A stretch of DNA of 64,000 bases from contig JAHRHZ010000084.1 of assembly GCA_024137785.1 (NCBI GenBank), positions 1 through 64,000 of the forward strand, given 5' to 3'. A program made the translations under genes and the position numbers. Source of the stretch: Ginglymostoma cirratum (taxonomy: Eukaryota). The notes below the pieces were generated by a model. The model was given only the letters and a program-made list of their open reading frames with translations, did no database searches and was not told where the DNA came from. Of the stretch, positions 1,451 to 61,674 are shown one piece after another (positions within the stretch are counted from its first letter, which is position 1; each line of letters begins with the position of its first letter).

Positions 1451-4275
1451 AAACATAGAACATTGAACATAGAACAATACAGCGCAGAACAGGCCCTTCA
1501 GCCCTCGATGTTGCGCCGCCCTGTGAACTAATCTTAGCCCATCCCCCTACACTATCCCATCATCATCCATATGCTTATCCAAGGACTGTTTAAATGCCCT
1601 AATGTGGCTGAGTTAAACTACATTGGCAGGCAGGGCATTCCACACCCTTACCACTCTCTGAGTAAAGAACCTGCCTCTGACATCTGTCTTAAATCTATCA
1701 CCCCTCAATTTGCAGCTATGCCCACTCGTACTAGCCGACGTCATCATCCTAGGAAAAAGACTCTCACTGTCCACCCTATCTAATCCTCTGATCATTTTGT
1801 AGGTCTCTATTAAATCACCTCTTCGCCTTCTTCTCTCCAATGAGAACAGACCCAAGTCCCTCAGCCTTTCCTCATAAGACCTTCGCTCCAGACCAGGCAA
1901 CATCCTGGTAAATCTCCTCTGCACCTTTTCGAATGCTTCCACATCCTTCCTGTAATGGGGCGACCAGAACTGTACAATATATTCCAAGTGAGGCCGCACT
2001 AGCGTTTTGTACAGTTGCAGCATGACATCACGGCTCCGGAACTCAATCCTTCTACCAATGAAACCTAACACACCGTATGCCTTCTTAACAGCACTGTCAA
2101 CCTGGGTGTCAACTTTCAGGGATATTTGTACCTGGACACCAAGATCCCTCTGCACATCCACACTACCAAGAATCTTTCCATTGACCCAGTATTCTGCCTT
2201 CCTATTATTCTTCCCAAAGTGCATCACCTCACATTTATCTGCATTGAACTCCATTTGCCACCTTTCAGCCCAATTCTGAAGCTTATCCAAGTCTCCCTGC
2301 AACCTGCAACATTCTTCCACACTGTCCACCATTCCACCGACTTTAGTGTCATCTGCAAACTGACTAACCCATCCACCTCTGTCTACGTCCAAGTCATTTA
2401 TAAAAATGACAAACAGCAGTGGTCCCAAAACAGATCCTTGTGGCACACCACTAGTAACCAGACTCCAGGCTGAATATTTTCCATCAACCACCACTCTTTG
2501 GCTTCTTTCAGAAAACCAGTTTCTAATCCAAACTGCTAAATCTCCCTCAATCCCATGCCTCCGCATTTTCTCCAATAGCCTGCCATGTGTAACATTATCA
2601 AAGGCTTTGCTGAAGTCCATGTACACCACGTCAACTGCCCTACCCTCATCCACATGCTTGGTCACCTTCTCAAAAAACTCAATGAGGTTTGTGAGACACG
2701 ACCTGCCCTTGACGAATCCATGTTGACTATCTCCAATCAAATTGTTGCTTGCTAGATGATTATAAATCCTGTCTCTTATAATCCTTTCCAAAACTTTTCC
2801 TACAATAAATGTAAGGCTCACTGGTCTATAATTACCTGGGTCATCTCTACTGCCCTTCTTGAACAAGGGCACAACATTTGCAATCCTCCAGTCCTCTGGT
2901 ACTAAACCTGTAGACAATGGCGACTCAAAGATCAAGGCCAAAGGCTCCGCCATCTCCTCCCTAGCTTCCCAGAGAATCCTCGGAAAAATCCCATCCGGCC
3001 CAGGGGATTTATCTACCTTCACACCTTCTAGGATTGATAACACCTCCTTCTTACTAACCTCAATCCATTCAAGTCTAATAGCCCTATCTCAGTCTTCTCC
3101 TCTACAATATTCTCCTTTTCCTGAGTGAAAACAGATGAGAAATATTTGTTTAGCACCTCTCCGATCTCCACAGGGTCCACATACAACTTTCCACTTCTGT
3201 CTTTGACTGGCCCTATTCTTACCCTCGTCATCCTTTTATTCCCCACATACCTATAGAAAGCTTTAGAGTTCTCCTTAATTCTACCTGCGAATGACTCCTC
3301 ATGTCCCCTCCTTGCTCTTCTTAACTCTCTCTTTAAATCCTTCCTAGATAATCTGTTACTCTCCATCGCCTCATCTGAACCATCTCGTCTCAATGTCACA
3401 TAAGCCACCCTCTTCCGCTTAACAAGAGATACAATTTCTTTTGTAAACCAAGGTTCCCTTACCTTATCACTTCCTCCCTGCCTGACAGGGACATACCTAT
3501 CAAGGACACACAATATCTGTTCCTTAAACCAGCTCCACATTTCGATTGTCCCCATCCCCTGCATTTTGCTACCCCATTCTATCCCTCCTAAGTCTTGCCT
3601 AATTGCATTATAGTCTCGCCCATAACTCTTGCCCAGTGGCATGTTCCTATCCCTTTCCATTGCTAAACTAAACGTAACCGAATTATGGTCACTCTCTCCA
3701 AAGTGCTCACCTACCACCAAATCAAACACCTGGCCTGGTTCATTACCAAGTACCAGATCCAGTGTGGCCTCCCCTCTTGTCGGCCCTTCGACATACTGTG
3801 TCAGGAAACCCTCCTGCACACATTGGACAAAAACTGATCCATCCGACGTACTAGAGTTATAGCATTTCCAGTCAATGTTGGGGAAGTTAAAGTCTCCCAT
3901 AATGACCGCCTTGTTCCTTTCACTCCTGCCCAGAATCGTTTTGCCGATCCTCTCCTCCACATCCCTGGAACTTTGTGGAGGCCTATAAAAAATTCCCAGC
4001 AGTGTGACCTCTCCTCTCCTGTTTCTGACCTCAGCCCATACCACCTCAGTAGACGAGTCCTCGTCAAAAGTTCTTTCAGCCACCGTTATACTGTCCTTGA
4101 CTAACAATGCCACACCTCCCCATCTTTTACCACCTTCCCTGATCTTTATAAAAGATCTAAACCCTGGAACCTGCAACATCCATTCCTGACCCTGCTCTAT
4201 CCACGTCTCTGAAATGGCCACAACATCGAAGTCCCAGGTATCGATCTTTGCTGCAAGCTCACCTACCTTATTCGG
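1451..4275 (-). mobile_element. CR1-clade LINE, 5'-truncated, near-intact ORF2 (APE endonuclease + RT)
   Basis: ORF 3028-4302 has SETW, IMGDFNFP and SDHN endonuclease motifs. ORF 1613-3043 has KSPGPDG, YMDFSKAFD, GVPQGSVLGP and FADD. One frameshift lies between them. (TTCTATG)n-type 3' tail near 1451-1475. Absent from copy B. Confidence 0.96.
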
Positions 4276-4393
4276 GAACAATGAGATAAATGAATCATTC
4301 AATAACCAGTTTGTATGTCATGTCGATTGATGAAACAATGTCACAAATTACAAGAATTCGAAATATACTTTAACACAATAACGTGACGAACCC

Positions 4394-4531: not shown

Positions 4532-5442
4532 AACAACGTAACGAACCCAACAGGATGATCAAGTGCTCTCGATTTTAATTTGTAGAGGCATTTAAAAAGT
4601 AATAAGAAAAGGGATTTCGGTAGGGTAATCTGATATTGCTGCTCAGTTCTTGAGGGTATTGGGGTTAGAGGTTTATAATCGAGCCTCACTTTCCTGCTTG
4701 CATTCCAGAATGTAGCAATAGTTTGGCCTCCATGTCCTTCAAATTGCCACAGTTCCAGTGGGCTGCTTCTTTCCAGCATTTCATTTTAAGAAGCTAACAA
4801 CACTGAAAACCAAAAGCACTTGTCCGTGTCTGCCGAACAAGGAGCCAACAAATCAAAGCATACTATCGACGATTCAGTGTGAAGTATTGCAAATTACAGC
4901 ACTTCAAGTGCACATCCGAGCCAAAACAACTTGTGAAAGGGACAAAGGTGCCTGTCTTTGATATCTGTTCAGGCAACACGTTCCCGATAGTGACCGCACT
5001 CTGGGATAAATTGTTTCATCATCTCCCGGTCAAGCTTTTCTAAATCTATAACCCCCGCATCACTGACCCCAATATGAAGGTCACTGACCATTTCCCCATC
5101 GGCCCATCTCAGTTTTGTGCATTCCAATGAAATTCCCCTTCGACCCATATTCCTTCCGTGGTAAAATCTTCATCGCACCCAATCCAATCACGTCTCAACA
5201 ACAACCTCCCAAATACCTTCTGTACCTTCCCTCGTGTTGTCATCTTTGTCGCAGTTTCCAGTTACGAAACCAACAGATCTTATTTGAAAAGGCGTGCGTT
5301 TTTTACACTCAGAAAGTAGTCATGTGCTCATTGACGCACACAACCCTACGTGACTAAGTTGGAGACACAGCTGAGCATTTCAGAAGCATTTGTCTGTCCT
5401 GTTCTCAGTCACAACTAATGGTCTCAGATTTTCGCTGCCAAT

Positions 5443-5485
5443 ATGTCACTGTGGGATGTCTGTCTGCTGCGCATCTTGTGTGCAG
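5443..5485 (+). CDS. Gene A leader exon (MSLWDVCLLRILCA)
   Basis: ATG at 5443, hydrophobic peptide, phase-1 donor G|GTACA. The B copy differs by an in-frame 12-nt indel. Confidence 0.7.
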
Positions 5486-8400
5486 GTACATTTTTCTTTT
5501 GCTGTGCATTCACCGATCATAAGCAAGACATAAAGTAAACTTACAGCTAGATTTAATAAATAAATGGATATTTTTCATTCTTGTGGTCTTTTTCTTTTCA
5601 AGTCAGTTATTCGCAGAACTCATTTGTCATTGGGTCTGTCAGAAAAAAAACATTCAATTAGTACAATCGTTTTAAAATGGGAGAATTAGTCGAACAGTAA
5701 AATGTGGTAAATTACTGTTGCATCAGTGGCCTGGAATAATGATGTTATTTGGGTGATGCAGACTGTCCTTCTTGTTTAATCTCAGTGTGTCTCCTTGGTT
5801 GACAGTTGCTGTGGGCAATTCAGCCAAAGTGAATCCTGATCTTACACGAAAAACGGCGCAGAGAGGTTCATCAGTTCTCATGCAATGTCCTTTCTCCTAC
5901 GAGTTCGACTATTCAAATGTTGTTGCTCACTGGTGGAGAGAAGGTCACAAAACCTTTCTGCAGGAAGATAGCAAAAAGTTCTTCCGTGTAATTAAAGGAG
6001 AAGCCAACCTTAATCTTCTGAATGTGACTGTCCGGGATGCTGGAACATATCACTGTGCAGTCGCATATCAACATCGAAAGCTTGGGAAAGCTGCTGTGCA
6101 ACTTATTGTATTTGGTAAGTGTCACCCCAGATAAACACGGAGTGCTCGCTGCTTGAAAACAATCAACAACAGTAATCAAAACAGTTAATTAGACACAGAC
6201 ATTTTGTGTAAAATATTTGCAGTTGTTTAAAATGAAATGTGTTCAAGAATATGGAGACCTTGGAGAACCAGTAACACCTCAAAATTTGAGATCTACACTC
6301 TATTAAAAATGAATCACTTGTTGGATGTGGGCGCGTCACTGGCTGGCCAGCATTTATTGCCTGTTCCTAGTTGCCCTTGACAAGGTGGTGGTGAGCTGCC
6401 TTCTTGAACCGCTGCAGTCCATGTGCTGTAAATAGACTCACAATGACATTAGGGAAAATTACAGTATTTTCACTCAGTGTCAGTGAAGGAACAGTGATGT
6501 ATTTTCAAGTCAGGATGGTGAGTGCCTTGGGAGAAACTTGCATGGGGTGGTGTTCCGATATCCATGCTGCCCTCGCCCTTCCAGATGGTAGTGATCGTGG
6601 GTTTGGATGGTGTTGACTGAGGGTTTTTGCTGAATTTCTGCAATGCATCTTAAAGTTACTCACTGCTGCTGCTGAGTATCTGTGGTGAAGTGACTGAATG
6701 TGGTGCCAATCAAGTGAGTGACTTTTTACTGGATGGTGTCAAACTTCTTAAGTGTTTTTAGACCTGCAGGCACGCAGGCAAATGGGGAGCATTCCAACAG
6801 ACTCCTGACTTGTGCCTTGTCGGTGGTGGACAGTCTTTGGGGAGTCAGCAGTTGAGTTACTCGGTGCAGTATTCCCAGCCTCTGATCCATGGTTCTATTT
6901 ATATGGCTCGCCCAGTTCTGTTTCTGCTCAATGGTAACGCCCAAAATGTGGATAGTGGGGAATTCACTAATGGTGATGCCACTGAATGTTAAGGGATGGA
7001 TAGTTCGATTATTTCTTATTTGACAATGTGTTTGCTTGGCATTTGTGTGGCCAGAATGTTCCTGTCAACTTTTGAGCCCAAACCTGGCTGTTGTTCAGTT
7101 CTTGCTGCACTTGGTCATGGTTTGCTTCTCTCTTATGTATTTAGTTTGTCTGCATTTATGCATTTTGCAGCAAAATTTATTGCAGTACTTTCAGGTTTTT
7201 CTTGTGTATGAATATGGAGTTACAGTATGAATAACCTTGAAGTTGTTTGCAATACTGTGCATTTTGAAATGTTCCTTACCTCACGAAAAGAGCCAAATTC
7301 TCAATCCCATCACTTGGATGTTTTTTGTTAAATTTGTTGGATCCAGGTCCAATGCCTCATCCTGTTGGCAACAGAAAGATGCAGTTTGACAATTCAATCA
7401 TGTTCCTATTATTAAGTAAAGATAAATTCTGGAAACTCCTTTTTCTAAATATGCAGGAGGTATATTTAAAGGATTTGAGGGACTTTTTTTAATCTGATAA
7501 ATGTTATCTCAATTTCATGTACTGTTCATAGAAACAATTGATACAACAGCCGTGCTGGAAATAAATTGTTTCGATAACATACTTTTTGCAGAAAATGCAA
7601 AGTCGGTTCATTTAATTTGTGTTATTTACCATTCAGCTCCACCAGCTCCTCTGAAAATTGACTCTGTTCCATCCGAAGATCTTTTTTCTGCTTCTCCCCG
7701 ACTCCGGTGCAGGACGTCTGACTTTTACCCAAAAGACTTTAAACTGACTTGGTACAAAAATGGAACAAACATATTGACAGGATTTAGGAATGAACAGCAG
7801 GCAAAACCTGACGATCTTTATGAAGTCATCAGCACCTTGGATTTGGAAGAGGCAATTGAGAGCGGGACAGTTTACACCTGTCAAGTATATCACGTTTCAA
7901 GCTCACTTCCAGCAAATGCCAGCTATACTGTGACGAATAAAGGTACCATTTCATTATATGTGGTACATTGAATGTTCACGTATCATTCAAAATGGGTAAA
8001 TATGTAGAAAGTGATTATGGCAGTTATTTGCATGTGATAACATCAAAATACAGTGATTTGTATGTGATTAAGTCAAAGTTGAAATCAAGCCCTATTGTAT
8101 GGATTTAAGTTTTCTTTCTTCATGTTGTTTGGAACTGATATGTAGTTATGACATGTGACTTTATTAAATGAGGTATCAGTCCTCAACACTGGTCACAGAA
8201 TTATTTTCTGCACACACTGATGACTCGCAAAGGGCTGCATGATCAATGTTAATTCTTCACAAAAGGTGAACAGTATTGAATTTGGTCGGGCCACATGTGA
8301 AGTTATTGTGTGCAGTTCTGTTCACCCTACTACAAAAGGGATTTTATGAAACTAGAAAGAGTGCAGAAAATATTTCCTAGGATGCAACATGGACTGGAAG

Positions 8401-11400
8401 GTTTGAGTTAAAAGGAGAGGGTGGATAGGCTGGGACTGTGTTTTTTTGCCCCTGGTGAGTAGGAGAGGACTTTAGAATCATGAGAGGCATAGATAAATAG
8501 AGAGATAACAGCTTTTCCACATCGTAGGGGAATCTAAAACTAGAGGGCAATCGTTTAAGTTGAAAGGAAAGAGATACAAAAGAGTCCAATGCAGCAATTT
8601 TTTTTTTTTTTTTACAAAGCGATGAGTGTGGTGAGTCTTGAATGGGCTGTCAGAGGTACTGGTGGAGGCGAGCACCGTTTTGTCATTGAAAGAACATTTG
8701 GAAAGGTAAATGGATGGTTCGGGCATGGAGGGACATGTATGAAATTCAGCAACTGGGACGAGTTTAATTGTGAAAATTGGGCAGCACAGAAAAGTTGGGA
8801 TGAAAGGCCTGTTTCCATGCTGTAAATCTCTACGACTCTGTGATATAGCTACACTCAACCAGCAGCTTCAGTTTAATTCCCCATTCATTAGAGTGCAACA
8901 TACTTGATTAATTGCTGAACTTTAATTCATAGCTGATTGGGTTGTAGCTGCAGAGACATTAAAATTATTTTAACTGAAGTTTAAATCTACGTGAAACTGA
9001 AGGAAATCTGGAAACAGGTTCAATTATCTATTTTTTCAGACATTTTGTACGCAATCCAATTCAACTCCCACCAAATGATTTAATATTTTGTGACAGAGCA
9101 TCAAGGACTGAACACTAATTGCAATTAACTCGGTTTCCATTAATTTCAAATTTGTCATTAGTTGAGGTACTTTCAGCATTTGCCTATTTCTCTAAATTCC
9201 AGAGATTTTGTGTCTGACTGCATAGGGATCAGTTTAACAAAGAGACAACAAAATTGAAATGCTGAGACTTGATGTCCTATATTTGTCATATTTACAAGGC
9301 AGTACAATTGAGAATGATGCACATGACATTTTAACCTGTATATCTTCAGTTTATATTGTCACTACTAAATTTGAATGTACATTAACATTACAGATTTTGC
9401 TTCTAAAATCAGTGTTACTATGGCCGCTCGTTGTGCTGCTGGTGCATTTGCAATTCTAATGTTGGTTGCGATGATTGCCAAGGATTTTCTGTTCTTTCCG
9501 TCCAAAGGTATGAATAGGGATAAAAGCACTCATTGAAATTAACATAATTGGGAACTGAACTTTTGAAATGTGTAACTTCAGCAACTATTTTATGTGAAAA
9601 CTCATTCAAATATATACCTTGCTTCACATCGAATTATAAAACATGAAGATTTGCAGCTTCAGTTTGCTAAGTTGTATTGGTGTAGATCAAAATTGTGATG
9701 GTGAAATTCATTGCTGAAAGAAGTTTCCGTGGCTTCAACCCTCTAAACATAAATTCAAAGCATCTGTGTGTAACATTTAGAGCAACATTGCGAAACTGTT
9801 GGTCCTGTTATACCCTGTTCATAATTGCCAAATATTAGTTTACTTGCTTTTGGTCTCTTTGATTTGTTGTTGAGTACAAATATCAATCATTGTTGTTGTC
9901 AACTTATGTCATTTTTATTTCTCAGGACGGGGAACGAACATATCAATAAATCCAACTCAGCAAGAAGATGTGGTGAGGCAATTTTCCTTTATTCTGTATA
10001 CTTTAATTTTCAAGTCTCGTTGAACAATTTAAACTGGGAATCTGCATATGACTTTTGAACATGCCAAGAGAAGTCTTGAAGATTTCATCAGCGGTCAAAA
10101 GCATAATTGCAGCTGAATAAAAACAAAATAAAGGAAATAGGATATCGCGGGAAGTTTCACAAACTGTTGTAACTATTTTATATCATCACACTTGTTTATA
10201 AATGTGTAAGCTATATCAATTAACTTTTGCTGATACTTCCAACTACCAATCATAGGTTTGAAGCTGACAGACAACTTTGATTTTTCTCTTCTTTCATTAT
10301 TAACAAGGACAGTGTGCTGAATAATTTTGCCACATTGATTACAGACATTACAGTCAATGTTGATTACATTGAGCTGATGGCTATTTTGAATAGTAGGTTC
10401 GTAATTGCAAAGCGAGATGTTTGTTCTCTCCTTCCTTTCGACGCCGTTCAAAATTAACTCATGCATTAATCTCAGTTCAGTGATGATGTCTGACTTCTAC
10501 TAGATGAAGCCTGTACCAAAGAACTTAATATATTTTGCGGACAGCTTGCACAACTTGACTCCCTTAAATAACTTTTACCGTAGGCTGCCCCTCTGCTAGT
10601 GCAACGTGCTGCAACTGCATGATACCTTGAAACAGAAATAGCCGAACTGCTGTGAGGAAATCTTGTCTCATTTTTAATTTTCAAAAATTGGATATCAGCG
10701 ACATGTGAGAGGAAGCTCCCTATCTGTTGACTAATTCAGTAATAACTGAGAACAGTTTGTTCAAACTCTTAAAAAAGTAAATCTTTGTTGCCGACGTCAG
10801 AGTGCGCAACTGAATTCAACATGTGGTTCTTAACTGCGAATGAATGCATTGCATACCAGCAGATTTAATCACTTTAAATGCATTGTTTGAGCTGTTGAAA
10901 TCTTTCAATGAATTCATTGGCCTTATTGTCTCAGTTTCGGTCGAGGTTCTAAACTTGCCTTTTTAAAGAAATTTCGCCGAAATCAAGTCCCTGACAACAA
11001 TGCAACTAACCTTCCTGGACTGCAGTAAATCAAGAAAGCTGGTTAACTTCTGGGGTCTTAATAGGAAGTAGTTATTGGCACCAAATACTGGTCTTGTCAC
11101 CGAGGCTCTCATGCCATTAAAAATAGTTCGTGGTGCAGAAAAGACTCATTTCTGTACTGGTGGTGCAGCAAAAGTTAAATTTCTTTCTTGGCGACTTCAC
11201 AAAACCGGAACAAATTCTTTATTCCATTGCTGCACGTCTTTCTGTGAAATGTTGCAGCTGCACTGTTGGAGATAACGGAATAAAGTCCTCTGATGTCCAG
11301 GTGCGATGCTTAGCCTGTGTTTCATTATTTGATAAACAGTGGATCAGATCAAAAGAGAAGACAAGATTATCTGTGATTGAGAAATAACTCACAGAAGATC

Positions 11401-12575
11401 AAAGAGTGCCTTTTAAAGCAATGAAATATTGTGGTTTACTTTTCAGACAAAAGCGCACTGTACTTGTAATATTTTTTCTTTGTCACTAACCTGAACTTGT
11501 TCCTCCCTAAATAGTTGATACATTTTCTAACTGAAAGCATCAATAATTTTCTTTAAAATGCTTTGAAAATGCGCTGCGCCTTGATGTTCACATTAGGCTT
11601 CAGTGCGTTAATTTATTAACATTTAAATGGAGGATCCAAATAATTACATTCCTTTATTCATGAGGGAAAAGGGTGATTCTAAAATTAATTTCCTAATAGC
11701 AGTGGTAAGTACATTTGTTCCTTTTCTCTAATTGACTGACTAATGTAACAAATGTAACGTGAGAGAACATTCTGTCAAAACCTGCATCGTACACCCTCCC
11801 ACTGAAACGTGTCACTAAGTTATTTCAAGTAATTGCCACTTTTATAAACAGTACTGAATACTCACTTTGTAGCAGAATACAATAAAATAGAAAGCCATCT
11901 ATCAGAATTCAAAAACGTAATTAATTAAAATGATACATGCAGCCTTTTCTTCTGCATAATTAAAACTATATTAAGATCAATAAATTTGAGAAAAATAACG
12001 TTTGCTTGTTGTTTCTAAGTGTGATGTTCCTGGCAAGAAAAAGTTCAGAGTGAGAAACTATAAAGTGTTGTGATTGTAATGAAGTGCTGGCGAAGACCGT
12101 GCAACAAACTGTTTGTCTCTGTTAGGAATGCACGCTTGTCTCTTGACTCCAAAATAAAATAAACTAATGAACGTTAAATGTTGACTTTGTAGAGAAAACG
12201 AGAGATGTCTGAGGATAAACTGACTTATGCTGCTCTTAATCTAGTTGGTTCTGAGGAAGGCATAATGCCGAAACAAAAGGAAGAAATCAGTGTATACAGA
12301 GGTACATTTCAGGTCACATGTGTAAATACTCAGTTTATTTATCAGAACGCTGTGATCTGGAGGTGATGTTGAAAATTGCTTTGTGTAATTTTCATCTGGA
12401 ATGTTTTAAATGAATGGTAATTCAGTCTCAATGTTATTTTTCAGACAAAAAAACTGCATGACAGACAGCAGGCTGACTTACCTTGCTCTGAAATTCAATG
12501 ATTCCAGTACATCATCGAAATCCAAACACCAAGAAAAAAAGTCCAGTGTATGCAGCGGTGAAAAGCAGCCGCTAA
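5443..12575 (+). CDS. Gene A (spliced): V-C1-TM-ITIM IgSF receptor, SIRP/NKp30-like, non-rearranging
   Basis: Exons 5443-5485, 5806-6114, 7637-7942, 9394-9507, 9926-9972, 12193-12312 and a final exon from 12445. All introns are GT-AG, with compatible phases (1,1,1,1,0,0). Every exon has a counterpart in paralogue B; V, C1, TM and the first cytoplasmic exon are identical in length. As assembled, the last exon reads out of the ITIM frame and stops at 12501 (about 331 aa); the stop matching B's is at 12573-12575. Confidence 0.8.
5806..6114 (+). CDS. Gene A Ig V-set exon
   Basis: GACAG| acceptor and G|GTAAGT donor, 309 nt, phase 1-1. Motifs: B-strand Cys (VLMQC), C-strand WW, LNLLNV, DAGTYHC. 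Confidence 0.92.
6320..7120 (-). mobile_element. Degenerate non-LTR retrotransposon 3' fragment in the V-C1 intron (shared with B at about 34145-34935)
   Basis: RT C-terminal-like peptide RVTQLLTPQRLSTTDKAQVRSLLECSPFA...KKFDTIQ, plus the common shark LINE/SINE 3' tail. Confidence 0.8.
7637..7942 (+). CDS. Gene A Ig C1-set exon
   Basis: TTCAG| acceptor and G|GTACC donor, 306 nt. Canonical C1 motifs LRCRTSDFYPKDFKLTWYKNG, YEVISTL and YTCQVYH. Confidence 0.93.
8270..8842 (+). mobile_element. Degenerate CR1 3' fragment (shared with B at about 36035-36592)
   Basis: Similar to the CR1 RT C-terminus and 3' UTR (LVRPH.EYCVQF..P, LERVQ). Confidence 0.8.
9394..9507 (+). CDS. Gene A transmembrane exon (DFASKISVTMAARCAAGAFAILMLVAMIAKDFLFFPSK)
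   Basis: TACAG| acceptor and G|GTATGA donor, 114 nt, phase 1-1, hydrophobic stretch. Same length in B. Confidence 0.82.
9926..9972 (+). CDS. Gene A first cytoplasmic exon (GRGTNISINPTQQEDV)
   Basis: Polypyrimidine tract with CTCAG| acceptor and |GTGAGG donor, 47 nt, phase 1 to 0. A 47-nt counterpart exists in B. Confidence 0.7.
12193..12312 (+). CDS. Gene A cytoplasmic ITIM exon 1 (RKREMSEDKLTYAALNLVGSEEGIMPKQKEEISVYRGTFQ)
   Basis: TTGTAG| phase-0 acceptor and an in-frame ITIM LTYAAL. The 3' boundary (CAG|GTCACA) is less certain. Confidence 0.75.
12445..12575 (+). CDS. Gene A cytoplasmic ITIM exon 2 (LTYLAL...PVYAAV), with two +1 indels in A-runs relative to B
   Basis: TTTTCAG| acceptor. 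Aligns to the open B exon 41257-41385. Confidence 0.6.
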
Positions 12576-13587
12576 ATTGGCAAACAAAAATACTCTTAAA
12601 AGACAGAAGCCCACAATGTATGACAGAGACTTTTATGTTTCTTATCAATTTTTAGCAGTTATTTTCCTCATGTAAGTCTGGCATAATTTTGCAAAACTGT
12701 GGATGAATTTCTTTCCTTCAAGTAATGTCACCTGGATCCATTTTATTTTAGCTTGAAAATTCACACAACAGTTACAACTAAAAATCGCAATTCAATTATT
12801 TCCAACTGTCAAGGATCTCCTTATTCCCTTTAAATCTGCACGAAGTTTGACATGATAATCATTAAAATTATTTTCGAGAATGTTTCTCTGTGGTTGTATG
12901 CCGTAAGGTATTTATAATTCCGGTTGTACTGGTCACACGATGTTTTCATTCACTTTCTCCAGTCACTGCGTTTTGACCTAGAAATGATGGGCTTTACTGT
13001 GACACATTTTCACAGGGCTTCTGTTGGTTAATTATCTTTAACTTGTTTATGTTTCACTGTCTTTTCTACCATGAATTGATATTTCGTTCTGCTTTCATTG
13101 TGCCAGGAGTTGTTATCCAGTTTGTCCTCTTGCTGTTCCTGTGAAAATGTTTGTGTGCTTTCCATATCGAGAAAGCTATAGAGATGCGATCGCTAATCTG
13201 CATGCCATTTTGATGGTTCATTTTTCTTAGTTAATTTGCTTTAGTTAAGAATTGGCAGTTTATTCTTCTTGGACAGCTGAAAAGAGAAACAGGTAGATTG
13301 ACTGAAATACATAAAATCTTCAGGGATCTTGACAAGATAGATGTGGAGATGTTTCCTCCGGTGGGAAAACTAGCACTAGGGAACATGGTTATATAAAAAA
13401 AATCAGAGGTTGACCGTTTAAAACAGCATTACACATATATTTGTTTCAGACATCGAGGAGCTTTTGGGACACTCTCCCTTAAAAGATCGAGGAAGCAAGG
13501 TTCTTGAATATTTCAACGTCACACATTGATAGATTATGTTGGAGAAAAGAGGTCAAAGGTTATCGGGGTACTGGTTGAATGTGTCAT

Positions 13588-14478
13588 ATTCCCTTCCCCT
13601 TCCTTGTCCACCTTCTGCAGGGACCGTTCCCTCCGGGACACCCTGGTCCACACTTCCTTCACCCCCAACACCTCCCCACAGCCCTCCGGCACCTTCCCCT
13701 GTAACTGGCGAAGGCGCAACACCTGCGCATTTACCTCCTCCCTCCCCATTATCCAAGGGCCCAAACATACCTTCCAGGTGAAGCAACACTTCACCTGCAT
13801 TTCCAAGAATCTAGCCGACTGCATTCGCTGCTCACAGTGTGATCTCCTCTACATTGGGGAAAAGGAGCGCAGGCTTGACGACCGCTTCGCAGAACATCTA
13901 CTGCTCGCAAAAAAGACCCTGAACTACCTGTTACCTGCCACTTCAATGCACCGCGTTGCTCCCTGGCCAACATCTCTGTGTCCGGCTTGCTACCAGGTTC
14001 CAGTGAAGATCAGTGCAAGCTGGAGGAACAACACCTCACTCTCAACTTGGGGACACTACGGCCCTTCGGACTCAATATTGAGGTCAAAACTCTCCCTTGT
14101 CCCTGCCCCCCACTCCACACACCAGGCCTTGTTACCACATAGCCTGCCACTACACACCCCCTGTTGTTAGTCACTAACAGTACCCATAAACAACTATTTA
14201 CCCTCCCAGCCTGGTCGTTAGCAACTCCTTTGTCTGTCCAACTGTCGTTTTCGCTCTTTGGGCTCTATCCTGCCATTTACTCCCGACCCACCCACGTCCC
14301 CATTTGCTACATATAAACTGACGTTTTCCCAGCCACCATCAGTTCTGACGAAGGGTCACCGGACCTGAAACTTTAACTCTGTTTTGTCCTCCACAGACGC
14401 TGCCAGAACTGCTGAGCTTTTCCAGCAACTTTGTTTTTGTTCCTGATTTACAGCGTCCGCAGTTCTTTTGTTTTTTTT
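13588..14478 (+). mobile_element. Penelope-like element 3' part (GIY-YIG remnant + pLTR)
   Basis: GTFPCN..C, CIRCSQCDLLYIGEKERRLDDRFAEHL, and a hammerhead-like core at 14345-14375. Confidence 0.88.
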
Positions 14479-14479
14479 A

Positions 14480-15832
14480 GGTTTTCTTGGAGCCTGGGAT
14501 GAGAGTGATGGGGAATGTGTAGGAGCAGGTGTAGCACTTCCTGCGGTTGCAGGGAAAAGTGCCAGGGGTGGTGGGGCTGGTGGGGAGTGTGTACCAGACA
14601 AGGGAGTCACGGAGAGAGTGGTCCCTCCAGAAAGCAGATAAGTGTGAGGAGGGGAAAATGTCCTTGGTAGTGGGGTCCGATTGCATGTGGTGAAAGTGCA
14701 GGAGGATGATGCGTTGAATCCGGAGGTTGGTGGGGTGGTACGTGAGGACAAAGGCGATTCTGTTTTGGTTGTTATTGCGGTGGGCGGGGTGTGAGGGATG
14801 AGTTGCAGGAAACACGAGAGATGCGGTCGAGTGCATTTTCGATCACTGTGGACGGGAAGTTGCGGTCCTTGATAAATGAGGACATCTGGGATGTCCGGGA
14901 GTGGAACGCCTCATCTCGGGAGTAGATGCGGCGTAGGCGAAGGAAGTGGGAATAGGCAATGGCATTTTTGCATGAAGATGGGTGAGAGGAGGTGTCTTCT
15001 CGGTAGCTGTGGGAGTCGGTGGGCCTGAAATAGATATCGGTTTCCAGGTGGTTGCCAGAGATGGAAGCAGAGAGGTCCAGAAAGGAGACAGAGGAATCAG
15101 AGATGGTCCAAGTGAACTTAAGGTTGGGTTGGAAGGAGTTAGTAAAGTGGATGAACAGTACGAGCTCCTCGTGGGAGCACGAGGCGGTGCCGATACAGTC
15201 ATCGATATAACAGAAGAAGAGTTGGGGATTAGGGCCAGTGTAGCTTTGGGAGAGGGATTGTTCTCCATATCCTACAAAGAAGCAGGCATAGCTTGGGCTC
15301 ATGCAGGTACCCATGGCCACCCCCTTTGTTTGCAGGAAGTGGGAAGAATTGAAAGAGAAGTTGTTCACGGTGAGGACGAGTTCGGATAAGCGGATAAGGG
15401 GTAGTTGGAGGAGGACTGATCGGGCCTGCGGGGGAGGAAGAAGTGGAAAGCCTTCAGGCCATCTGCATGGGGAATGGAAGTATATAGGGACTGGACGTCC
15501 ATGGTGAAGATGAGGTATTGGGGACCAAGGAATTGGAAGTTTTGGAGGAGGTGGAGGGAGTGGGTGGTGTCACAGACATCGTTGGGAAGTCCCTGGACCA
15601 AGGGGGAGAAAATGGAGTCGAGATGAATGGAGATAAGTTCAGTGGGGCAGGAGTAGGTGGAGACAATGGGTCGACCAGGGCAGTCTGGTTTGTGGATTTT
15701 GGGAAGGAGATAGAAACGGGATGTGCGGGGTTGGGGAACAATAAGGTTGGAGGCTGGGGTTGGGAGGTCATCTCAGTTGATAAGGTTGTGGATGGTCTGC
15801 GCGATGATGTTTTCGTGTTCAGGGTGGGGTCA
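14480..15832 (-). mobile_element. Penelope-like element RT region (frameshifted)
   Basis: TMDVQSLYTSIPH, QTKGVAMGT, YIDDC, FLDL, and the linker GTFPCNRRKCYTC. Confidence 0.93.
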
Positions 15833-15834
15833 AT

Positions 15835-18800
15835 ATCTATTTGCTTAACACTCGTGTTCGAATGTTAATGTCTGCTTGAATTCTGTATAAAAACGGCTGC
15901 TTTTGAGCTGTGATTTTGGTATTCCATTTCGACGTACATTGTGCTGTGGTGAATGTACAATAAAAAAGTTATTTTCGCTTCTCACTGATCCTGGTGGTCT
16001 GGTTCTTTGAACGCGATCTCACAAGTTGGCGTAGTCGGCAGCATGCTGGGGACACTGTCAAACCTGTCTGGTCATGGACACTAGCAGGAGGTAAGCAGCA
16101 CACTTCTGTGTCGTGATATAGTCTCTGAAAGCATCCTGAACCTCTCGTGAGTGAGCTATCATTTTGGACCCCCCACGCCTTCGGCTCGAGGGCTCAAACT
16201 CGGCCAAAACAGATCTAGGACAAGGTGTCCACGGCAAGAAATTGTCCACAGCGCGTGATTTTGACTCGTGATGTGCGACCCCAATAAGCTGTCTACAACC
16301 TCCAAAGATGGGCCTTCCCCAACCCCCTCCCCGCTTGTGCCCCCTCCCCCAACCTGACATAACAGAGGACGAAATGCTGTGGCAGCTACTACACTACTTT
16401 GAAATACAATTTTTGTTAGAGGAGACTCGAACGAGAACAGTGTGGAAATATAATGTTCCAACAGGACAGTGGTCCCGGAAGGACATGAAACGTGTCTGGG
16501 GAGAAACCACCCGGCAGGAGAACAAGGGCAGGGCTAAATGTTCCCTCACATTAATGGCACAACTCTGCCAAAGAAATGAACTCATGACCCGGTCAGCTCA
16601 ATACCGAGAAATAAATAAACTCAAAGAACAGGTAAAAGCCATGCATGAGCAACTGCAGAAGGAGAGACCCAAACAAGAGGAGGCTGAAGTTAAAATACAG
16701 GAGCTCGTACAGGAGAACAGGAAAATGAAAGATGAACTGACAGTTTTGTCAGTTTCTCCCCTGGCTCCAAAGACAATTCCGAGTCTCTACCCAACGACCC
16801 GAGAAATTCAGGAAGTGATTAAACGAAACAAAGCTCTTAAAATTCTCATAGCTTTCCAAACTGAGGAATCCTCCAGCAGCGACAGTGATGAAGACTCTAC
16901 ACCCCCAACACACTTTTTACAGCCCCTGAAAACCAAAAAAAGTAAAACGTGAGAAATTAGTGAGGCAAGGATTAGACGACGGCAGGGAGGTCGATGTTCC
17001 AATGAGACAAACCGAAAACCACATTGTCCATGTGCCTGTGACTCCTGACAACATTGACAGGTGGTCTACAGAAATGTCTCACTCAAAGAAAGGGCTGATG
17101 AAAACTTGGGAAAGCCTAGACCGGTTAGGGGAATATACCTGCTCCATCCCTGGGATGGGGTACAAAACCTCACTGTCATAGTCACCAAGAGAGAAGGACG
17201 CCTCCTCCATGAGGCAGTTATATATGAATCCGAACAGGACCTGCAAGCTGGCTGGACAGCAATAAAACAGAGCTGCAGGGATTTAGTCCACCTAAAACCG
17301 ATTGGACAAAGGTCACTGTCAGCTGCCAAAATGCCACTGAGGAAGTCCCCAAGTAGAAGGAAATGTTGAGAACAACCTGGAAGGAATATGCAAGGGTCCC
17401 GAATGTAAAGGATGATAAAGATTTCGAAAACTGCGACTCCGGCCCGCTGAAATCTGCCTTTGTAGCAGGACTCAAACCAAAGCTCGGTAAAATGCTGAAA
17501 CTCACTAAACTGGATTGGGACCAAAGGGGGATCAAAACTATGTGTTTATCCAAGCCCACCAGCTCGACCGGGAAATGGGAGCTCAGGTGCGAGCCGTGCA
17601 GACAGGACAAGTAAGACAGACCCCTGGTTGACCCGGAACAACCCAGGACAGACGCCCAGGGAAATGTCAAGTCTGTGGGAAGGAGGGTCACTGGTCCAAG
17701 AATTGCTGACACAGGGGGAAAGGGCACAGCGCCCTCTGAGAGCCCTTATGAAAGAGAAACCCCAGTGGCAGGAAATAATCCCAACCTCCTGGAACGGTTC
17801 AAAAGGCTGCCCGCCCAACAGTGGCAGGGGCTGCTGGATTTGACAAAAAACTGAGTGAGCCCACTCCATGCCCCTCCACGCTGCTCCTGGCTTTATGCAA
17901 GCAGAGGGGCGACGGACTATATGCGACCATGAAGGCGAGGGACCGAGACATTGCTTGTCTCTTGGACACAGGAGCAGAATAGCACGCCTTCCCCTTAAGT
18001 CTGAAGCCAATCTCCCGCTAGACGGGACAGGAAAGACTGCCTACGGAGCAGGAGCTGACAGGATTGAAATTAAAAAAAACTAATCCAATAAATATTGCCT
18101 TTGGCCCCCACGAACTGGTAACCTGTGTCGAGGTCGTACCTGTTGCTCAACCGCTCCTCGGGATGAATATCCTTTCTCAATTAAATTCATCCCTACACTT
18201 CAGTGATGGGCGGATGAGGTGGTCTATTAGAACCCTGTAGAGGGAATATTTAAAGGACCACCACATCTGAGCGAAAGACAATGATGATTGCAGGTTACTA
18301 GAAATGGAACCTGCAACATTTACAGGGATACCCCCCGCCTTGCACCAATAGTATCCCATCAGCCCGATGTCAATTACGGGAGTCCTCCCAATCAGTCAAA
18401 GACACGAGGAAAAGGGAATCCTGGTGAAAACACACAGCACCGTGGAAGCCTAAGGTAATGCCCTGGCAGATCAAGCAGCTAAAAGAGCTGCCTCCAATCA
18501 CTCCTGTCAAGATCCTCAAATGCACGTCTGCTGGCTCGACACTGGGACAACAATCAAGATCTGTAATCAACACAGAGTGAGTGTTCCCGAAAGGAAAAAT
18601 GGGGCTGGATTGAGAATGGACCCAAGGTATACGAAGACGGAATTTGGAGGCACCGAGAGTCTAATCGCCCAATTGCACCCACTGCCCTGATGCCATATCT
18701 GGCGCAACAAATTCTCTCCTGGGGACATTTGGAACCGGAACACAAGACAGCCCGGTTCCAAGGCAGCTGGTGGGGAAGAGGCTTTAAAAGACATGCTCGG

Positions 18801-20046
18801 ACCATATTAGACCGCTGCCTCACCTGCCTCAAGAACAACCCGAGAACAAAAGTGCAAGTCCCCCAGCTGAAACACCAGCGCCCCTAGGGCCATTCCAACA
18901 CTTACAGGTTGATTCTTTCTTGGTGCCACGCTGTACATGGATTTTCGGACGTGCTTGTCATTGTGGATATGTTCTCTAGATGGGTGGAAGCTGCACCCGC
19001 AAGAAAGGCCACTGCCAACCACACAGCCAAGGCGCTGTGTAGGTAGTACATACCCCGGCTGGGGAGTAGCCACCACCATCGACTCAGATCAGGTGACCCA
19101 TTTCACAGGAACAGTGTGTCAGGAGGTCTGCCGATTATTAAGAATTGAGTGGAATTTTCACTGCCCGTATCACCCTCAATCTCAGGGCAGCTGGAAAGAA
19201 TGAACCAGACTCTGAAACAAAGGCTGGCTAACTACCACCAGGAAGGAATACCCTGGCCACAGGTATTACAAATAGTGCTGTGTAGTGTCAGGGCTACTCC
19301 TGACAAAACAACAGGCCTGAGCCCGTTTGAGACAGTGACAGGCAGGCTGATGTCCCTACCCGGGACAATACACCTGCGAGAGGCCGACTGTCATCTTGTG
19401 AGCGATGCCCTAATGTCCTACTGTCCTGCACTAACCGTTAAGTTCTGCTTCCTCATCGGTATCGGCTGCCTGGACGGACCCGCCAGAGGGAGGGCATGAT
19501 ATCGTACCAGGCATGTGGGTACTTGTGAAAAAGGTCCACACGGAACCATTATATACAAAGTGGTAGAGACCATACCAAGTCCTACTGATCACCCAGTCAG
19601 CTGTCAAGGTTCAGGGAAAGAAGGCCTGGACTCACACCTCACATATCAAACGGACATCTTGCGAAATAGAAGACGCAGAGACTGAATAGACACCATGACA
19701 CCCTGAAATTATTGCCAACTTTACCCCTTACTATGGCACTTATTTCATTTGTGGTCTTAAAGCATACCCGTGGCTCCCTGCTGTTGGCAAGGTTCATGAC
19801 ACCTTGGGTATGTGGTCACACACATATACCACTCTGCTAAATTGCCCAGCCTGAGACTCAAATGAACAATCTCTGATTCCCAGAATGCGAACCATATATC
19901 TACAGTCTCATTCAACATCTAAGGGACCCCAGTGGACTTTGGGTTTCTATTTCGCCTTACATCGTGCTGCTGTGAACATACAATAAAGAGGCTATTTTTG
20001 CCACTCACTGATCCTGGTCGTCTGGTTCTTTGAATGCGATCTCACA
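15835..20046 (+). mobile_element. Endogenous retrovirus (class I, epsilon/gamma-like), internally deleted
   Basis: Paired LTR ends ...GGTTCTTTGAA(C/T)GCGATCTCACA at 16023 and 20046. PBS at 16027-16044. Gag zinc knuckle CQVCGKEGHWSKNC (17665-17706), protease CLLDTGA (17956-17976), RNase H end GNALADQAAK, integrase IDSDQVTHFTG and HCPYHPQS.GQLERMNQTLK, env remnant GTYFICGLKAYPWLP (19735-19779). Confidence 0.92.
16027..16044 (+). other. Retroviral primer-binding site complementary to tRNA-Ser
   Basis: TGGCGTAGTCGGCAGCAT, 3 nt after the LTR-terminal CA. Matches the complement of the vertebrate tRNA-Ser 3' end (TGGCGTAGTCGGCAGGAT) at 17 of 18 positions. Confidence 0.85.
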
Positions 20047-39300: not shown

Positions 39301-41385
39301 CTGCCATTTCTCCACCCATATCTGCAACTGATCAATATCGTGCTGAATCCTTTGACACCTTCCACACTATCCTCAACTCCACCGATCTTTCTATCGACTG
39401 CCAAATTACTAACACAGCCAGCTAAATTTTCACCCAAATCATTTATATATATATCACAAACAGCAGAAGTCTAAGTACGGATCCCTGTAGAAGACCACTA
39501 AGCCACGGACCTCCAGCCTGAAAAACACCCTTCAACCACTACCCTCTGTCTTCGACTGGCAAACCAATTCTGAATCAACTTGATCAAGTCACCATGGATC
39601 TCATGCATTTTAATTTTCTGGATGAGCCTACCATAAGGTATCTTGTTGATACTGCAAAATAATAACCCGACTCTTTCATTGCATCTGGTACCTGCAATTC
39701 CCTGACGATACTGTAGCGAAATTACCTGGACTGCAGTAAGTCAGGAAGCTGGCTTCCTACTGGATGCTTAATCGTGAGTAGTCATTAGCACCAAATACTG
39801 GCCTTGCCAGCAAGTCTTGTATCCCGATAAAAATAGATTGTTGTGCAGAATTGTCCCACTCCTGTGCTGCAGGTGCAGCAAAAATAAAATTCCTTTCTCA
39901 GGAATCTTCAGAAAATGAAGTCTTTATTCATTATTGTCTGTCTTTCTGTGAAATGTTCCAGCTGCACTGCTGGAGGTAACAGAATAAAGTCCCCTGATGT
40001 CCAGATGCAATAATTAGTAGTGGATCAGATCAAGAGAAAACAAAATTATCTACGATTGAGAAATACCTAACAGGAGACCAAAGAATACACTTTCGAGCAC
40101 TGAAATAGTGTGGTTTACATTATAGACAAAAACGCACCGTACTTGTTGAATTTTTTCATTGCCACCAATCTGAACATGTTCCTCCTCAAGTAACTGGCAC
40201 CTTTTCTAACTTAAAACATAAATAATTTACTTTAAAGCACCCTGTCTGACATCAAGTGTACCTTGTGAATTCTTTGAAAATGCACTGCACCTTTGCCTTC
40301 GCATCAGACTCAAATACATTTATTTATTAATGTTTGGATGGCCTATTGAAATAATTGCCTTCCTTTATTTATAAAGGAACAGGGTGATTCTAAAATTAAG
40401 TTTCTATTAGCAGTGATAAGTACAGTTATTCCATTTTCTCAAAATTACTTACTGATTTAACAAATTTAACGTGAGGGAATTTTCAATCAAAACTGCACCA
40501 TATACCCTCAGAATGAAAGACATGACTAATTTATTTCAGATAACTGCCACTTATAATTTTACTTTGAAGCAAAGTGACATGTTATTATTTTATTGTTATT
40601 AATAAACACAGAAAAATTTATTGTTGCTTCATTTAAGAAACTGTACTACACAATGAATTTGTAGCAGAATGTAGTAAAACAGAAAGTCATCTATCAGATT
40701 TCAAAATCTTAACTAAATTGAACTGAGGAAAGCCAACTTTTCTTCAGAACACTGCATAATTGCAGGTTTACCCGAGTAACGTTAATTTAAAGTGATATTA
40801 ACATGAATAATATTGAAAAAATAATGCTTGCTTGTTGTGACTAAGTTGATGCTCTCGGTAAGAAACTGTTCAGAGTGAGAAACTCTAAAGTTTTATGATT
40901 GCAAAGCGATTATAACAAAATAATTACCCATGTTAAGAATGTACGCTTGTCTCTTTCCTCCAGAACAAAATAACCAAATCAATGTTAAATCTTGACTTTC
41001 TAGAAAGAACAAATGATGGTTGAGAATCAGCTGACATATGCTGCTCTTGATCGAGTTAGTTCTGAGGAAGGCATAATTCCGATACAACAGAAAGAAGTCA
41101 TAGTACATACAGGGTATATTTCAGGTCAGATATGAAAATAATCAGTTCATTCATGATAATGAGTTGATTTGGAGATGATATTGAAAATTCCTTTGTGTAA
41201 TTTTCATCCAGAATGATTTAAATGAATGGTAATTCAGTCTCAATGCTGTTTTTCAGACAAAACACTGCATGCCAGATAGCAGGCTGACTTACCTTGCTGT
41301 GAAATTCAATGATTCCAGTACATCATCGAAACCCAAGCACCAAGGAAAAAGTCCAGTGTATGCAGCGATGAAAAGCAGGTACTAA
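33258..41385 (+). CDS. Gene B (spliced): paralogue of gene A, V-C1-TM-ITIM IgSF receptor
   Basis: Exons 33258-33312, 33631-33939, 35428-35733, 37136-37249, 37667-37713, 41004-41124 and 41257-41385. The frame is open from the leader through the first ITIM. The C1 domain has lost its core Trp. Confidence 0.78.
33631..33939 (+). CDS. Gene B Ig V-set exon
   Basis: 309 nt, AG/GTAAGT boundaries, C...WW...DAGTYHC. About 22 of 103 residues differ from A. Confidence 0.92.
35428..35733 (+). CDS. Gene B Ig C1-set exon
   Basis: 306 nt, LHCRTSDIFPKYFKLTGYKNG...YTCQVNH, G|GTAACA donor. Confidence 0.9.
37136..37249 (+). CDS. Gene B transmembrane exon (DFASEISVTMAASFAARALAILILTVMIAKGFLFLTSK)
   Basis: TACAG| acceptor and G|GTATGA donor, 114 nt, open frame. 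Confidence 0.82.
37667..37713 (+). CDS. Gene B first cytoplasmic exon (VRERKSSRFPTQHEDV)
   Basis: CTCAAG| acceptor and |GTGAAG donor, 47 nt as in A. Confidence 0.65.
38945..39233 (-). mobile_element. HE1-type V-SINE nested in a CR1 fragment (about 38718-39650), specific to copy B
   Basis: The reverse strand reads GGTGACACGGTGGTTCAGTGGTTAGCATTACTGCCTCACAGTGCCAGG..., with the V-domain GTGTCTGCGTGAGTTTCCTTCGGGTGCTCCAGTTTCCTCCCACAGTCCAAAGATG. Confidence 0.85.
41004..41124 (+). CDS. Gene B cytoplasmic ITIM exon 1 (KEQMMVENQLTYAALDRVSSEEGIIPIQQKEVIVHTGYIS)
   Basis: TTTCTAG| phase-0 acceptor and ITIM LTYAAL. The second Tyr position reads CAT (His). Confidence 0.72.
41257..41385 (+). CDS. Gene B terminal ITIM exon 2 (TKHCMPDSRLTYLAVKFNDSSTSSKPKHQGKSPVYAAMKSRY*)
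   Basis: TTTTCAG| acceptor. Open in phase 0 to TAA at 41383-41385, with two tyrosine motifs. Confidence 0.72.
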   Translation, partial: TKHCMPDSRLTYLAVKFNDSSTSSKPKHQGKSPVYAAMKSRY

Positions 41386-56532: not shown

Positions 56533-56640
56533 GTACACAAACCAAAACATGTCTGATTAAAAAAAAGAGTAAAAACTGTCGAGAGTTCTGCTTCGAATCC
56601 ACGCTTATATATGTGTTTGTTTCTTTTTTGTTTCTGACAG

Positions 56641-56961
56641 CTACCAACGAAATCCCTTTCTCTGCAACACAATTCCCCACGTGCCTGACCGCACTGGAAG
56701 ATACAAATGTGTCCGTGTATTGTTCCATTCCGCTATTCGATAATAATCCATTGGTGGTCTTTTACTGGTGGAGAGGCGACAAGGACAATGCTTTGAACCT
56801 GACAGCAGAAGAAAGGAAACTAATGTTCCCATTCAAGCATGGATCTACTGAGTTCCAACTGCTGAATCTACATTTCCAGGACTCCAGAATCTATTATTGC
56901 AGCATTAAGGTCGCGGGCAGGAAGATTTTCAATGGAACAGGGACGAGGCTTAACGTGCACG
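56641..56961 (+). CDS. Gene D Ig V-set exon with germline-joined J-like end
   Basis: TTTCTGACAG| acceptor and G|GTAAGT donor, 321 nt. Motifs VSVYC, FYWWR, FQLLNL, DSRIYYC and FNGTGTRLNVH. Confidence 0.92.
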
Positions 56962-61089: not shown

Positions 61090-61674
61090 CGTCTGAAGCG
61101 AGAATGGGTTTTGACAGAACAGTTTTCAGTCAGCAGGCGGAATTGGGGATGGGGTGATGAGGGGTGATTGACAAATTGAGTACCTCAGAGATTATTTTTA
61201 ACTCCGAAAAGTAAAATACCCGACTTTAAGGTTGGCTATTTACTTTGGAAGTGGAATATGATGTGATGCATTAGTTGTGAAAGGAATTGACAATTAATGC
61301 ATTGGTGGCCAACGGCCCAATGGCATTATCTGGAGATATATGTCCAAATCTCGCCATGACCACCGTTGTCCATTTCTGGAAGAGATCTTTCGGGGTATAA
61401 AATTGCCCCCCTTCCCTGGTCTAGCCTGCATGAGACTCCAGGCCAACTGCAAAATGGTTGACTCTTCACTGCTCTCTGGGCAATTGGACATTTTGATTCA
61501 TTATTGTCACGTCTACCGAGGTGCAGTGAAAAGTGTTGTTTTACATGCTTGAGAAGCACATCGAACTGTACAGGTGCATCAGGGTAACAGGATACATCTT
61601 CGGCCTTTCACTTGTTTTTCTGTTGTCATGTACTAGTAGCGTTTTAATACATATTTCCATTAATTTATTCGCAG

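Follow-up and report, generated by a model that had tools for sequence, protein, structure and literature searches.

How is an inhibitory receptor tail with several tyrosine motifs put together, and how does it come apart again? This question is raised by a 64-kb window of Ginglymostoma cirratum (the whole stretch of DNA analysed, 64,000 nucleotides of contig JAHRHZ010000084.1), where four V-C1 immunoglobulin-superfamily genes lie amid repeats and one of them, gene A (5443-12575, forward strand), consists of leader, V, C1, transmembrane (TM) and 47-nt cytoplasmic exons followed by two tail exons (Table 1). A preliminary description made from the letters alone proposed that the tail exons arose by tandem duplication of one two-tyrosine exon, giving either a four-tyrosine SIRP-like tail or alternative terminal exons. 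Taken together our analyses make it probable, with room left for doubt, that a phase-0 exon was copied, that the copies form a tandem four-tyrosine tail in relatives, and that frameshifts have broken this tail in gene A.

Gene B, on the same strand from its V exon at 33631 to 41385, is a tandem paralogue of gene A with ~72-77% identity over most of its length. By Pfam both carry a V-set followed by a C1-set domain, a tblastn search for a second C1 between the C1 and TM exons of either gene found none, and both have lost the J-like GxG strand of the V domain, where the family consensus reads NGTG. The V exon of gene A is identical to the Stegostoma proteins P0001 and P0002 at 83/102 residues and to Hemiscyllium at 67/102, which places the animal near the carpet sharks, and the TM segment of gene A has an Arg close to the N-terminal edge of the helix. 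In gene B the substitution of the core Trp of C1, together with an altered FYP motif, may have cost this domain its fold.

The remaining two family genes in the window, one per strand, both contain stops or frameshifts. On the forward strand V, C1 and TM segments at 56625-56960, ~61676-61953 and 63370-63494 match the second half of Hemiscyllium P0003, which itself looks like a fusion of two adjacent gene models; the gene has a frameshift in C1 and a stop in its TM exon. On the reverse strand (51470-51180 and 49933-49629) the nearest relative is P0033 (65% in V); the V of this gene carries stops and its C1 a frameshift. The tblastn and ORF scans of the window returned family genes and repeats, but no synteny marker gene. 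LINE-type retroelement remains occupy 1613-4317 (reverse strand), 14356-15868, 42862-43795 and 59575-61167, including long endonuclease-like and reverse-transcriptase-like frames (family assigned by eye), and fragments at ~16272-19499 on the forward strand look, again by eye, like LTR-retroelement frames of the gag and integrase kind. The P0002 model opens with 107 odd residues that are matched (62-73%) by forward-strand segments at 23212-23277 and 26667-26875; this match suggests that the P0002 N-terminus is misannotated upstream DNA conserved between both sharks. Exon-like AG...GT stretches at 10550-10655 and 11335-11430, downstream of the 47-nt exon and ahead of tail exon 1, have counterparts in gene B; they are open in B near 38270-38375, carry stops in A and are absent from the proteins of relatives. 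A candidate exon near 10585-10655 was rejected, as the frames of A inspected by eye contain stops and its depth in sequencing run X1 is at background level.

Table 1. Exons and tail intron of genes A and B, in positions of the 64-kb window.
Feature	Position	Strand	Remarks
Gene A putative leader exon	5443..5485	+	ATG 5443; phase-1 GT donor 5486; resembles P0001 N-terminus by eye
Gene A Ig V-set exon, open	5806..6114	+	Pfam V-set E=6e-9
Gene A Ig C1-set exon, open	7637..7942	+	Pfam C1-set E=2e-14; record 2 of run X1
Gene A TM exon, 114 nt	9394..9507	+	AG/GT ends, translation; 29/37 identical to P0002
Gene A short cytoplasmic exon, 47 nt, phase 0 at end	9926..9972	+	
Gene A tail exon 1 (module copy 1), 109 nt	12193..12301	+	28/36 identical to P0002 module 1
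Gene A tail intron, 143 nt	12302..12444	+	Putative donor, placed from P0002 (TVYAET)
Gene A tail exon 2 (module copy 2 and stop 12573-12575)	12445..12575	+	Module part 12445-12557
Gene B V exon	33631-33939	+	
Gene B C1 exon	35428-35733	+	Gly replaces core Trp
Gene B TM exon	37136-37249	+	Arg inside helix
Gene B short cytoplasmic exon	37667-37713	+	
Gene B tail exon 1, 110 nt	41004..41113	+	LTYAAL intact; His at second tyrosine position
Gene B tail exon 2	41257..41385	+	Intact 37-codon module (LTYLAV, PVYAAM) and stop; 32/43 identical to P0002

When the tail exon bodies were aligned within and across the two genes the proposed duplication was borne out, with identities of 61% for A1/A2 (70/115, anchored at both ends), 61% for A1/B2 (68/112), 57% for B1/A2 (66/116) and 55% for B1/B2 (63/114), and for all four pairs none of 1000 dinucleotide shuffles scored as high. 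A blastn comparison gives no match between exon 1 and exon 2, and in 8 tests of the intron and 3' flanks the similarity does not rise clearly above chance (best 15/1000). With flanks included, local alignment of A1/A2 reaches z=11 at +5/-4 scoring and z=3.1 (7/1000) at blastn scoring, and that of B1/B2 is not significant in three scoring schemes (47/1000 at best). DNA similarity of the linkers alone is weak, at 12/1000 for both pairs involving A exon 1 and 188-245/1000 for both involving B exon 1; in relatives, linker-only similarity of the two modules was matched by 0/500 shuffles in P0005, P0029, P0031 and P0046. The two bases after the module end are GT in A1, B1 and A2, and B exon 2 measures 111 nt to the point matching the exon 1 donor position. 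The DNA similarity, the equal length of 37 codons and the linker similarity outside the motifs in relatives support the view that 12193-12301 and 12445-12557 are copies of one 111-nt phase-0 exon. Judged from sequence, this duplication is old, its flanks are eroded, and it is common to the whole family.

The preliminary description had reached the duplication by way of spacing counts that hold for only part of the tail, since it had in fact matched exon 1 of gene A against exon 2 of gene B. Nine codons from acceptor to LTY are present in those two exons (acceptors 12192/12193 and 41257, 27 nt each), but A exon 2 has 28 nt; likewise 22 residues lead to a second VY in A exon 1 (SVY) and B exon 2 (PVYAAM) but not in A exon 2 or B exon 1. 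Exon 2 of gene A is not the clean phase-0 two-tyrosine exon it was taken for, as a second +1 precedes PVY and its tyrosine codons lie 70 nt apart. Nor is the SVY of A exon 1 the second tyrosine of the module: because of a 2-nt loss the TAC at 12295 is an in-frame artefact, and the homologous codon is the TAT at 12293 in the other frame. Restoring the two nucleotides gives VYTEV, as had been claimed, if the intron is read through, but on splicing the valine codon is cut off at donor 12301.

This donor position follows from Stegostoma XP_059507783 (P0002), whose intact tail has LTYAAL at 378, TVYAET at 401, LTYLAL at 415 and PVYAAV at 438, and whose module 1 comprises 37 residues and ends two residues past its second tyrosine. 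A profile search, three word searches and cluster members yielded 205 related proteins, of which 74 remained as a tail count set after 13 redundant ids were dropped and a limit of 620 residues, a TM segment and a tail of at least 40 residues were applied. The module is present in 49 of these 74 non-redundant tails, once in 23, twice in 23, three times in 2 and four times in 1, so that 26/74 tails hold at least two in tandem; these tails are gene predictions and the proteins paralogues, and the counts are therefore non-independent. The tyrosine-tyrosine distance is 23 in 62/79 modules and the spacing to the tyrosine of the next module is 14 in 28/44. Comparison with other sharks, which the preliminary description had put forward as a check, thus recovers a 37-residue module one to four times per tail from chimaera to sharks and rays, its carriers including Callorhinchus, Heptranchias, Heterodontus, Scyliorhinus, Pristis and Mobula. 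Two-module tails are intact in P0002, P0007, P0028, P0029 and others, and first modules are repeated, exactly or nearly so, in Callorhinchus P0182 and P0183 and Mobula P0189. In Heterodontus P0005 (XP_067906072) the exon pair occurs twice, letter for letter, giving an eight-tyrosine tail; this exact repeat may be a recent duplication or an assembly artefact.

Of the two outcomes first proposed for the duplication, the four-tyrosine tail is found in predicted relatives (Stegostoma XP_059507783 and XP_048402855, Callorhinchus XP_007902825) but in neither window gene, and alternative terminal exons as such find no support, as the relatives carry both exons in tandem and the tail intron of neither A nor B has an AATAAA or ATTAAA polyadenylation hexamer. 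With phase 0 at both ends the exon could be duplicated, skipped or lost in frame, and this symmetry presumably explains why one to four modules occur across the family; exon 1 looks like a skippable in-frame cassette. Long tails accompany an uncharged TM segment in P0002, P0007, P0005 and P0027, and a TM Arg accompanies a short or cut tail in P0001, P0011 and gene B. The Arg lies inside the TM in gene B, P0001 and P0003. In Stegostoma P0001 the tail is cut after the first ITIM and the first module is of the 109-nt type. The V domains of P0001 and P0002 are identical.

The order of the modules also speaks to the age of the duplication. First and second modules score nearer to the same-position module of other genes in 44/52 cases, and on a module tree the exon 1 copies of the window group with Stegostoma module 1 (99/98) and the exon 2 copies with module 2 (99/91). 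Position is clustered on this tree (0/500 shuffles as low), yet 7-8 label changes occur on 37 columns, and a single origin of the duplication is not proven by it. From this grouping by position we infer that the duplication predates the split of the sampled shark orders, and it is probably older than the chimaera-shark split as well. The chimaera lineage separated ~400 million years ago. Turtle SIRP-alpha and lungfish modules give low scores against the shark modules. Genes A and B together with P0001 and P0002 form one clade (96/95), with no support within it.

What would such a tail do? Phosphorylated ITIM (S/I/V/LxYxxI/V/L) and ITSM (TxYxxV/I) motifs bind the tandem SH2 domains of SHP-1 and SHP-2, motif pairs ~25 residues apart permit two-point binding, and SHP-1 is preferred where pY+1 is Ala (PMC8631942). 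In intact relatives, where both exons are predicted to be spliced in tandem, the four-tyrosine tail would likely dock SHP-1/SHP-2 once phosphorylated. The tyrosines do not fit the consensus equally: 63/79 first tyrosines do so, as do 10/44 internal second tyrosines and 17/35 last second tyrosines. Position Y+3 is V, I or L in 8/27 internal versus 36/42 last modules, and under a looser definition in 17/44 versus 26/35 (Fisher p=0.003, the paralogues being non-independent). We infer that internal second motifs miss the consensus because the donor GT also opens the pY+3 valine codon; the 143-nt intron of gene A indeed starts GTA, which is this codon if read in the family frame. In an internal module Y-x-x would be completed by whatever residue opens the following exon, in most cases Thr, so splicing would usually yield Y-x-x-T and no ITIM, and the hydrophobic anchor would be retained only in the last or a read-through module. 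Two of the four tyrosines of P0002 (motifs 1 and 3) lie within the PMC8631942 consensus, and a spliced four-tyrosine tail would consist of two strong ITIMs and two weaker sites.

In gene A, as its letters stand, this design is broken. Exon 1 keeps LTYAAL but is 2 nt short of the family length, which puts its second motif out of frame, and exon 2 has LTYLAL and PVYAAV in different frames through a +1 insertion in each of two A7 runs. In gene B, exon 1 has lost both a tyrosine (now His) and 1 nt, and exon 2 is in frame only when exon 1 is skipped. With the letters as they stand, 0/9 splice options of A and B give four motifs, 0/9 give more than two consensus ITIM/ITSM motifs, and 6/9 leave LTYAAL alone. 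Skipping exon 1 leaves gene A a 33-residue tail with zero motifs and gene B an in-frame two-tyrosine tail. A weak upstream acceptor at 12426 in A would retain motifs 1 and 3, and alternative donors at 12312 and 41124, tried along with this acceptor, do not restore four motifs either. Between A and B exon 2 is 92% identical (12445-12557 versus 41257-41367), exon 1 78% and the intron ~85%; the high exon 2 identity suggests stronger constraint or gene conversion. The frameshifts would leave gene A a receptor with one ITIM or none, likely giving little or no inhibitory signal, and its product could be a decoy, or a member of the activating type, in a cluster of paired receptors that turns over by birth and death.

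The most serious competitor to this reading, although we consider it unlikely, is that A and B are simply decaying transcribed pseudogenes whose truncated tails have no role. The three tail lesions in A and two in B fit such decay, as do the missing core Trp of the B C1 domain and the stops and frameshifts in both other family genes of the window. In gene A, however, every exon from the leader to the 47-nt cytoplasmic exon is open, the V-C1 joint is spliced and every lesion is confined to the two tail exons, and P0001, which also has a TM arginine, is similarly truncated.

Sequencing data bear on the expression of gene A. Four runs (X1, X16, X17 and X19) were compared with 5300-13400, the type of X1 not being on record. 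X1 contains a 932-nt contig (record 2, depth 39.7) in which V is joined to C1 with 0 differences from gene A, and gene A is therefore likely transcribed and spliced. The raw RNA runs X16 and X17 have almost no exonic reads and X19 has none on the tail, which is too sparse for a verdict on expression. Record 2 leaves 74 nt beyond the known exons, and its end falls at 12518 if exon 2 is entered directly; the next X1 contig, with 92 letters before a joint at 12580, starts at 12489, giving the 30-base overlap that 31-letter words predict. Moreover, the X1 depth at 12447 is 279.2+39.7, the excess over the form with the deletion being exactly 39.7. From this length and depth arithmetic in one run it is fairly probable, short of firm, that the main contig of A skips exon 1, and it would then enter exon 2 out of frame to give the 33-residue tail without tyrosine motifs. 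Neither an exon 1-exon 2 junction nor a skip junction is present among the X1 rows listed (there are 64 further rows).

A deeper X1 contig (depth 279-293) differs from A by a gain of 2 bases at 12288 and by losses of one base at 12447 and two at 12533. It departs from A in the same 3' stretches where B does too, which identifies it, on the letters, as a paralogue or allele of the B lineage; its exon 1 is full, but it would still lose the fourth tyrosine. This contig raises the possibility of intron retention between the tail exons. Exon 1 would then be mainly the last coding exon, read through the valine codon to a stop with exon 2 as 3' untranslated sequence, and splicing versus retention would switch between a complete two-motif tail and one with four tyrosines. 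The contig carries both the 2-nt gain and the 1-nt loss in one piece, and the X1 joints listed include some with depths of 43-49 but none at ~279. Retention also leaves 11-13 thousand depth-bases of the X1 bin unexplained, against 39-41 thousand for splicing; the family frame of A reads VYTEV and then a stop after 5 more residues; and the module of the Callorhinchus model P0040 ends TVYTQV and reads on. However, X1 has unspliced contigs at other introns too (records 1, 3 and 4, record 1 at depth 41), so that the retained intron may reflect pre-mRNA, neither model closes the bin, although the same depth arithmetic is exact in the next one (232.8 versus 232.8), both introns lack a polyadenylation hexamer, and the 26 tails predicted with tandem modules speak for splicing. 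On balance we regard retention as the main mode as improbable, more so than decay into pseudogenes. The leader intron is still present in a B-like X1 contig of depth 41, and the intronic start GTACAT is common to the leader donor (5486) and the exon 1 donor (12302).

That the frameshifts are assembly errors and gene A really encodes an intact four-tyrosine tail is very unlikely. Two of its three lesions do lie in A7 homopolymers and the deepest X1 contig has a family-length exon 1 and exon 2 start, but this contig diverges as B does, depth 39.7 at 12447 comes without the deletion, the 2 nt missing from exon 1 do not fall in a homopolymer, and three errors would have to lie within 380 bases of a gene whose V and C1 agree with a contig without a single difference. 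The view that the two tail exons are unrelated and alike only through ITIM-like motifs, to which the missing blastn match and the near-chance flanks and B exon 1 linkers might have pointed, is largely refuted and of negligible probability given their equal length, phases and donor position, their DNA identity, the linker similarity in relatives and the recent exact or near-exact re-duplications in P0005, P0182, P0183 and P0189.

Taken alone this locus gives a modest result: its tail is that of an ordinary immune receptor, in a copy that has been damaged or converted. Its broader meaning lies in how a multi-ITIM tail may be built and dismantled, with one in-frame exon bearing a tandem-SH2 docking pair copied, skipped or frameshifted, and with inhibitory and ITIM-poor members within one cluster as the outcome; the overlap of donor and valine codon moreover allows one to test directly whether splicing controls how strong an ITIM is. 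At present it would be speculative, and we hold it improbable in full, to extend this to a single symmetric exon as the inhibitory unit of a large, apparently undescribed paired-receptor family of cartilaginous fish, in which copy number sets the tyrosine pairs and splicing versus read-through switches the motif, with the SIRP-alpha tail derived from the same duplication via intron loss. If the family were orthologous to SIRP, sharks would retain the two-exon ancestor of the SIRP-alpha tail, and this checkpoint signalling design would date to early jawed vertebrates. The shark family or its tail exon was not found described in the literature searched, a body that omits most subscription journals: it did not turn up in PMC10751288, PMC8236899 and PMC12227049, and one supplementary file of PMC3964593 gave no match.

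Among known receptors SIRP-alpha (SHPS-1, CD172a) is one of the nearest parallels. It shares with the shark family non-rearranging V and C1 domains, a J-like GxG strand (in most shark members), and four tyrosines in two pairs that begin LTYAxL with Ala at pY+1; both families form clusters of paralogues, some with a TM arginine and short tail, and several shark relatives bear automatic SIRP-like names. A J-like GxG strand suggests the VJ group, of which SIRP is a member (PMC11599192), and the family consensus NGTG, lost in genes A and B, aligns with the SIRP-alpha G strand. However, SIRP has three Ig domains, V-C1-C1 (PMC12975943), whereas a single C1 is present in genes A and B. The likeness of the tails claimed in the preliminary description holds for motif order but not for spacing, which is 23/14/23 in the shark family, 24/17/26 in human SIRP-alpha (tyrosines 429, 453, 470 and 496; PMC12765318) and 25/17/26 in turtle. 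Furthermore, in P0002, the closest intact relative, motifs 2 and 4 fall outside the ITIM/ITSM consensus, whereas all four fit it in turtle SIRP-alpha, and the ITIMs of mouse Sirpa all lie within exon 8 (PMC9071265), unlike the tails of A and B with their two exons around a 143-nt intron and one pair in each.

Searches of solved structures leave the ectodomain between two groups. By sequence, B7-H6 and SIRP-alpha are nearly level (54 vs 53 bits); SIRP-alpha has the best single V-C1 stretch, 81.7 bits, among three PDB alignments listed, with a profile that included lungfish and coelacanth SIRP-like proteins, and ranks 4th by whole score in a further profile search. The AlphaFold model of P0001 is a confident two-domain model, two Ig domains followed by a helix. 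A fold search places B7-H6 on top (Z 16.5, rmsd 3.4, 183 aligned), tied with ICOS-L and PD-L2; SIRP-gamma reaches Z 14.6, B7-type chains thus scoring ~2 Z units above it, and SIRP-alpha is absent among the matches listed. By Foldseek the Ig-fold families are not separable. B7-H6 (NCR3LG1) shares the V-C1-TM two-domain layout, and some shark relatives are automatically named NCR3LG1-like, but it is not among the best 60 with deeper profiles, and we know of no repeated two-tyrosine tail module in it. The UrIg and UrIg2 genes of sharks are likewise non-rearranging V-C1 genes and stand high in profile and fold searches; they have a lower single-stretch score (54 bits) and are described as Ig-like dimers with many C domains (PMC12227049). 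By analogy the shark family thus appears SIRP-like in its logic and its paired cluster, with sequence favouring SIRP-alpha or a tie and fold favouring the B7 type.

Paired receptors occur in small clusters of ITIM members beside charged-TM short-tail members (PMC3533184), and by its predicted proteins the shark family has this layout, with clustered paralogues and ITIM tails beside TM-Arg short-tail members. The combination of a TM Arg with a single ITIM in gene B and P0001 resembles that of KIR2DL4, which has one ITIM and also pairs with FcR-gamma (PMC3533184); the ectodomains differ, and the shark side of this comparison is read from sequence. Tails whose ITIM content depends on exon choice are already known; for the variant seen here, a repeatable exon that holds a whole pair and whose donor overlaps the anchor codon, we found no description in the literature searched. 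In PECAM-1 and CEACAM1 cytoplasmic exons set the ITIM content, and skipping or frameshift removes ITIMs, as in CEACAM1-S. The tyrosines of PECAM-1 are ~23 apart, and the exons of both receptors hold one tyrosine each, unlike the shark exon, which holds the whole tyrosine pair and is itself the unit of repetition.
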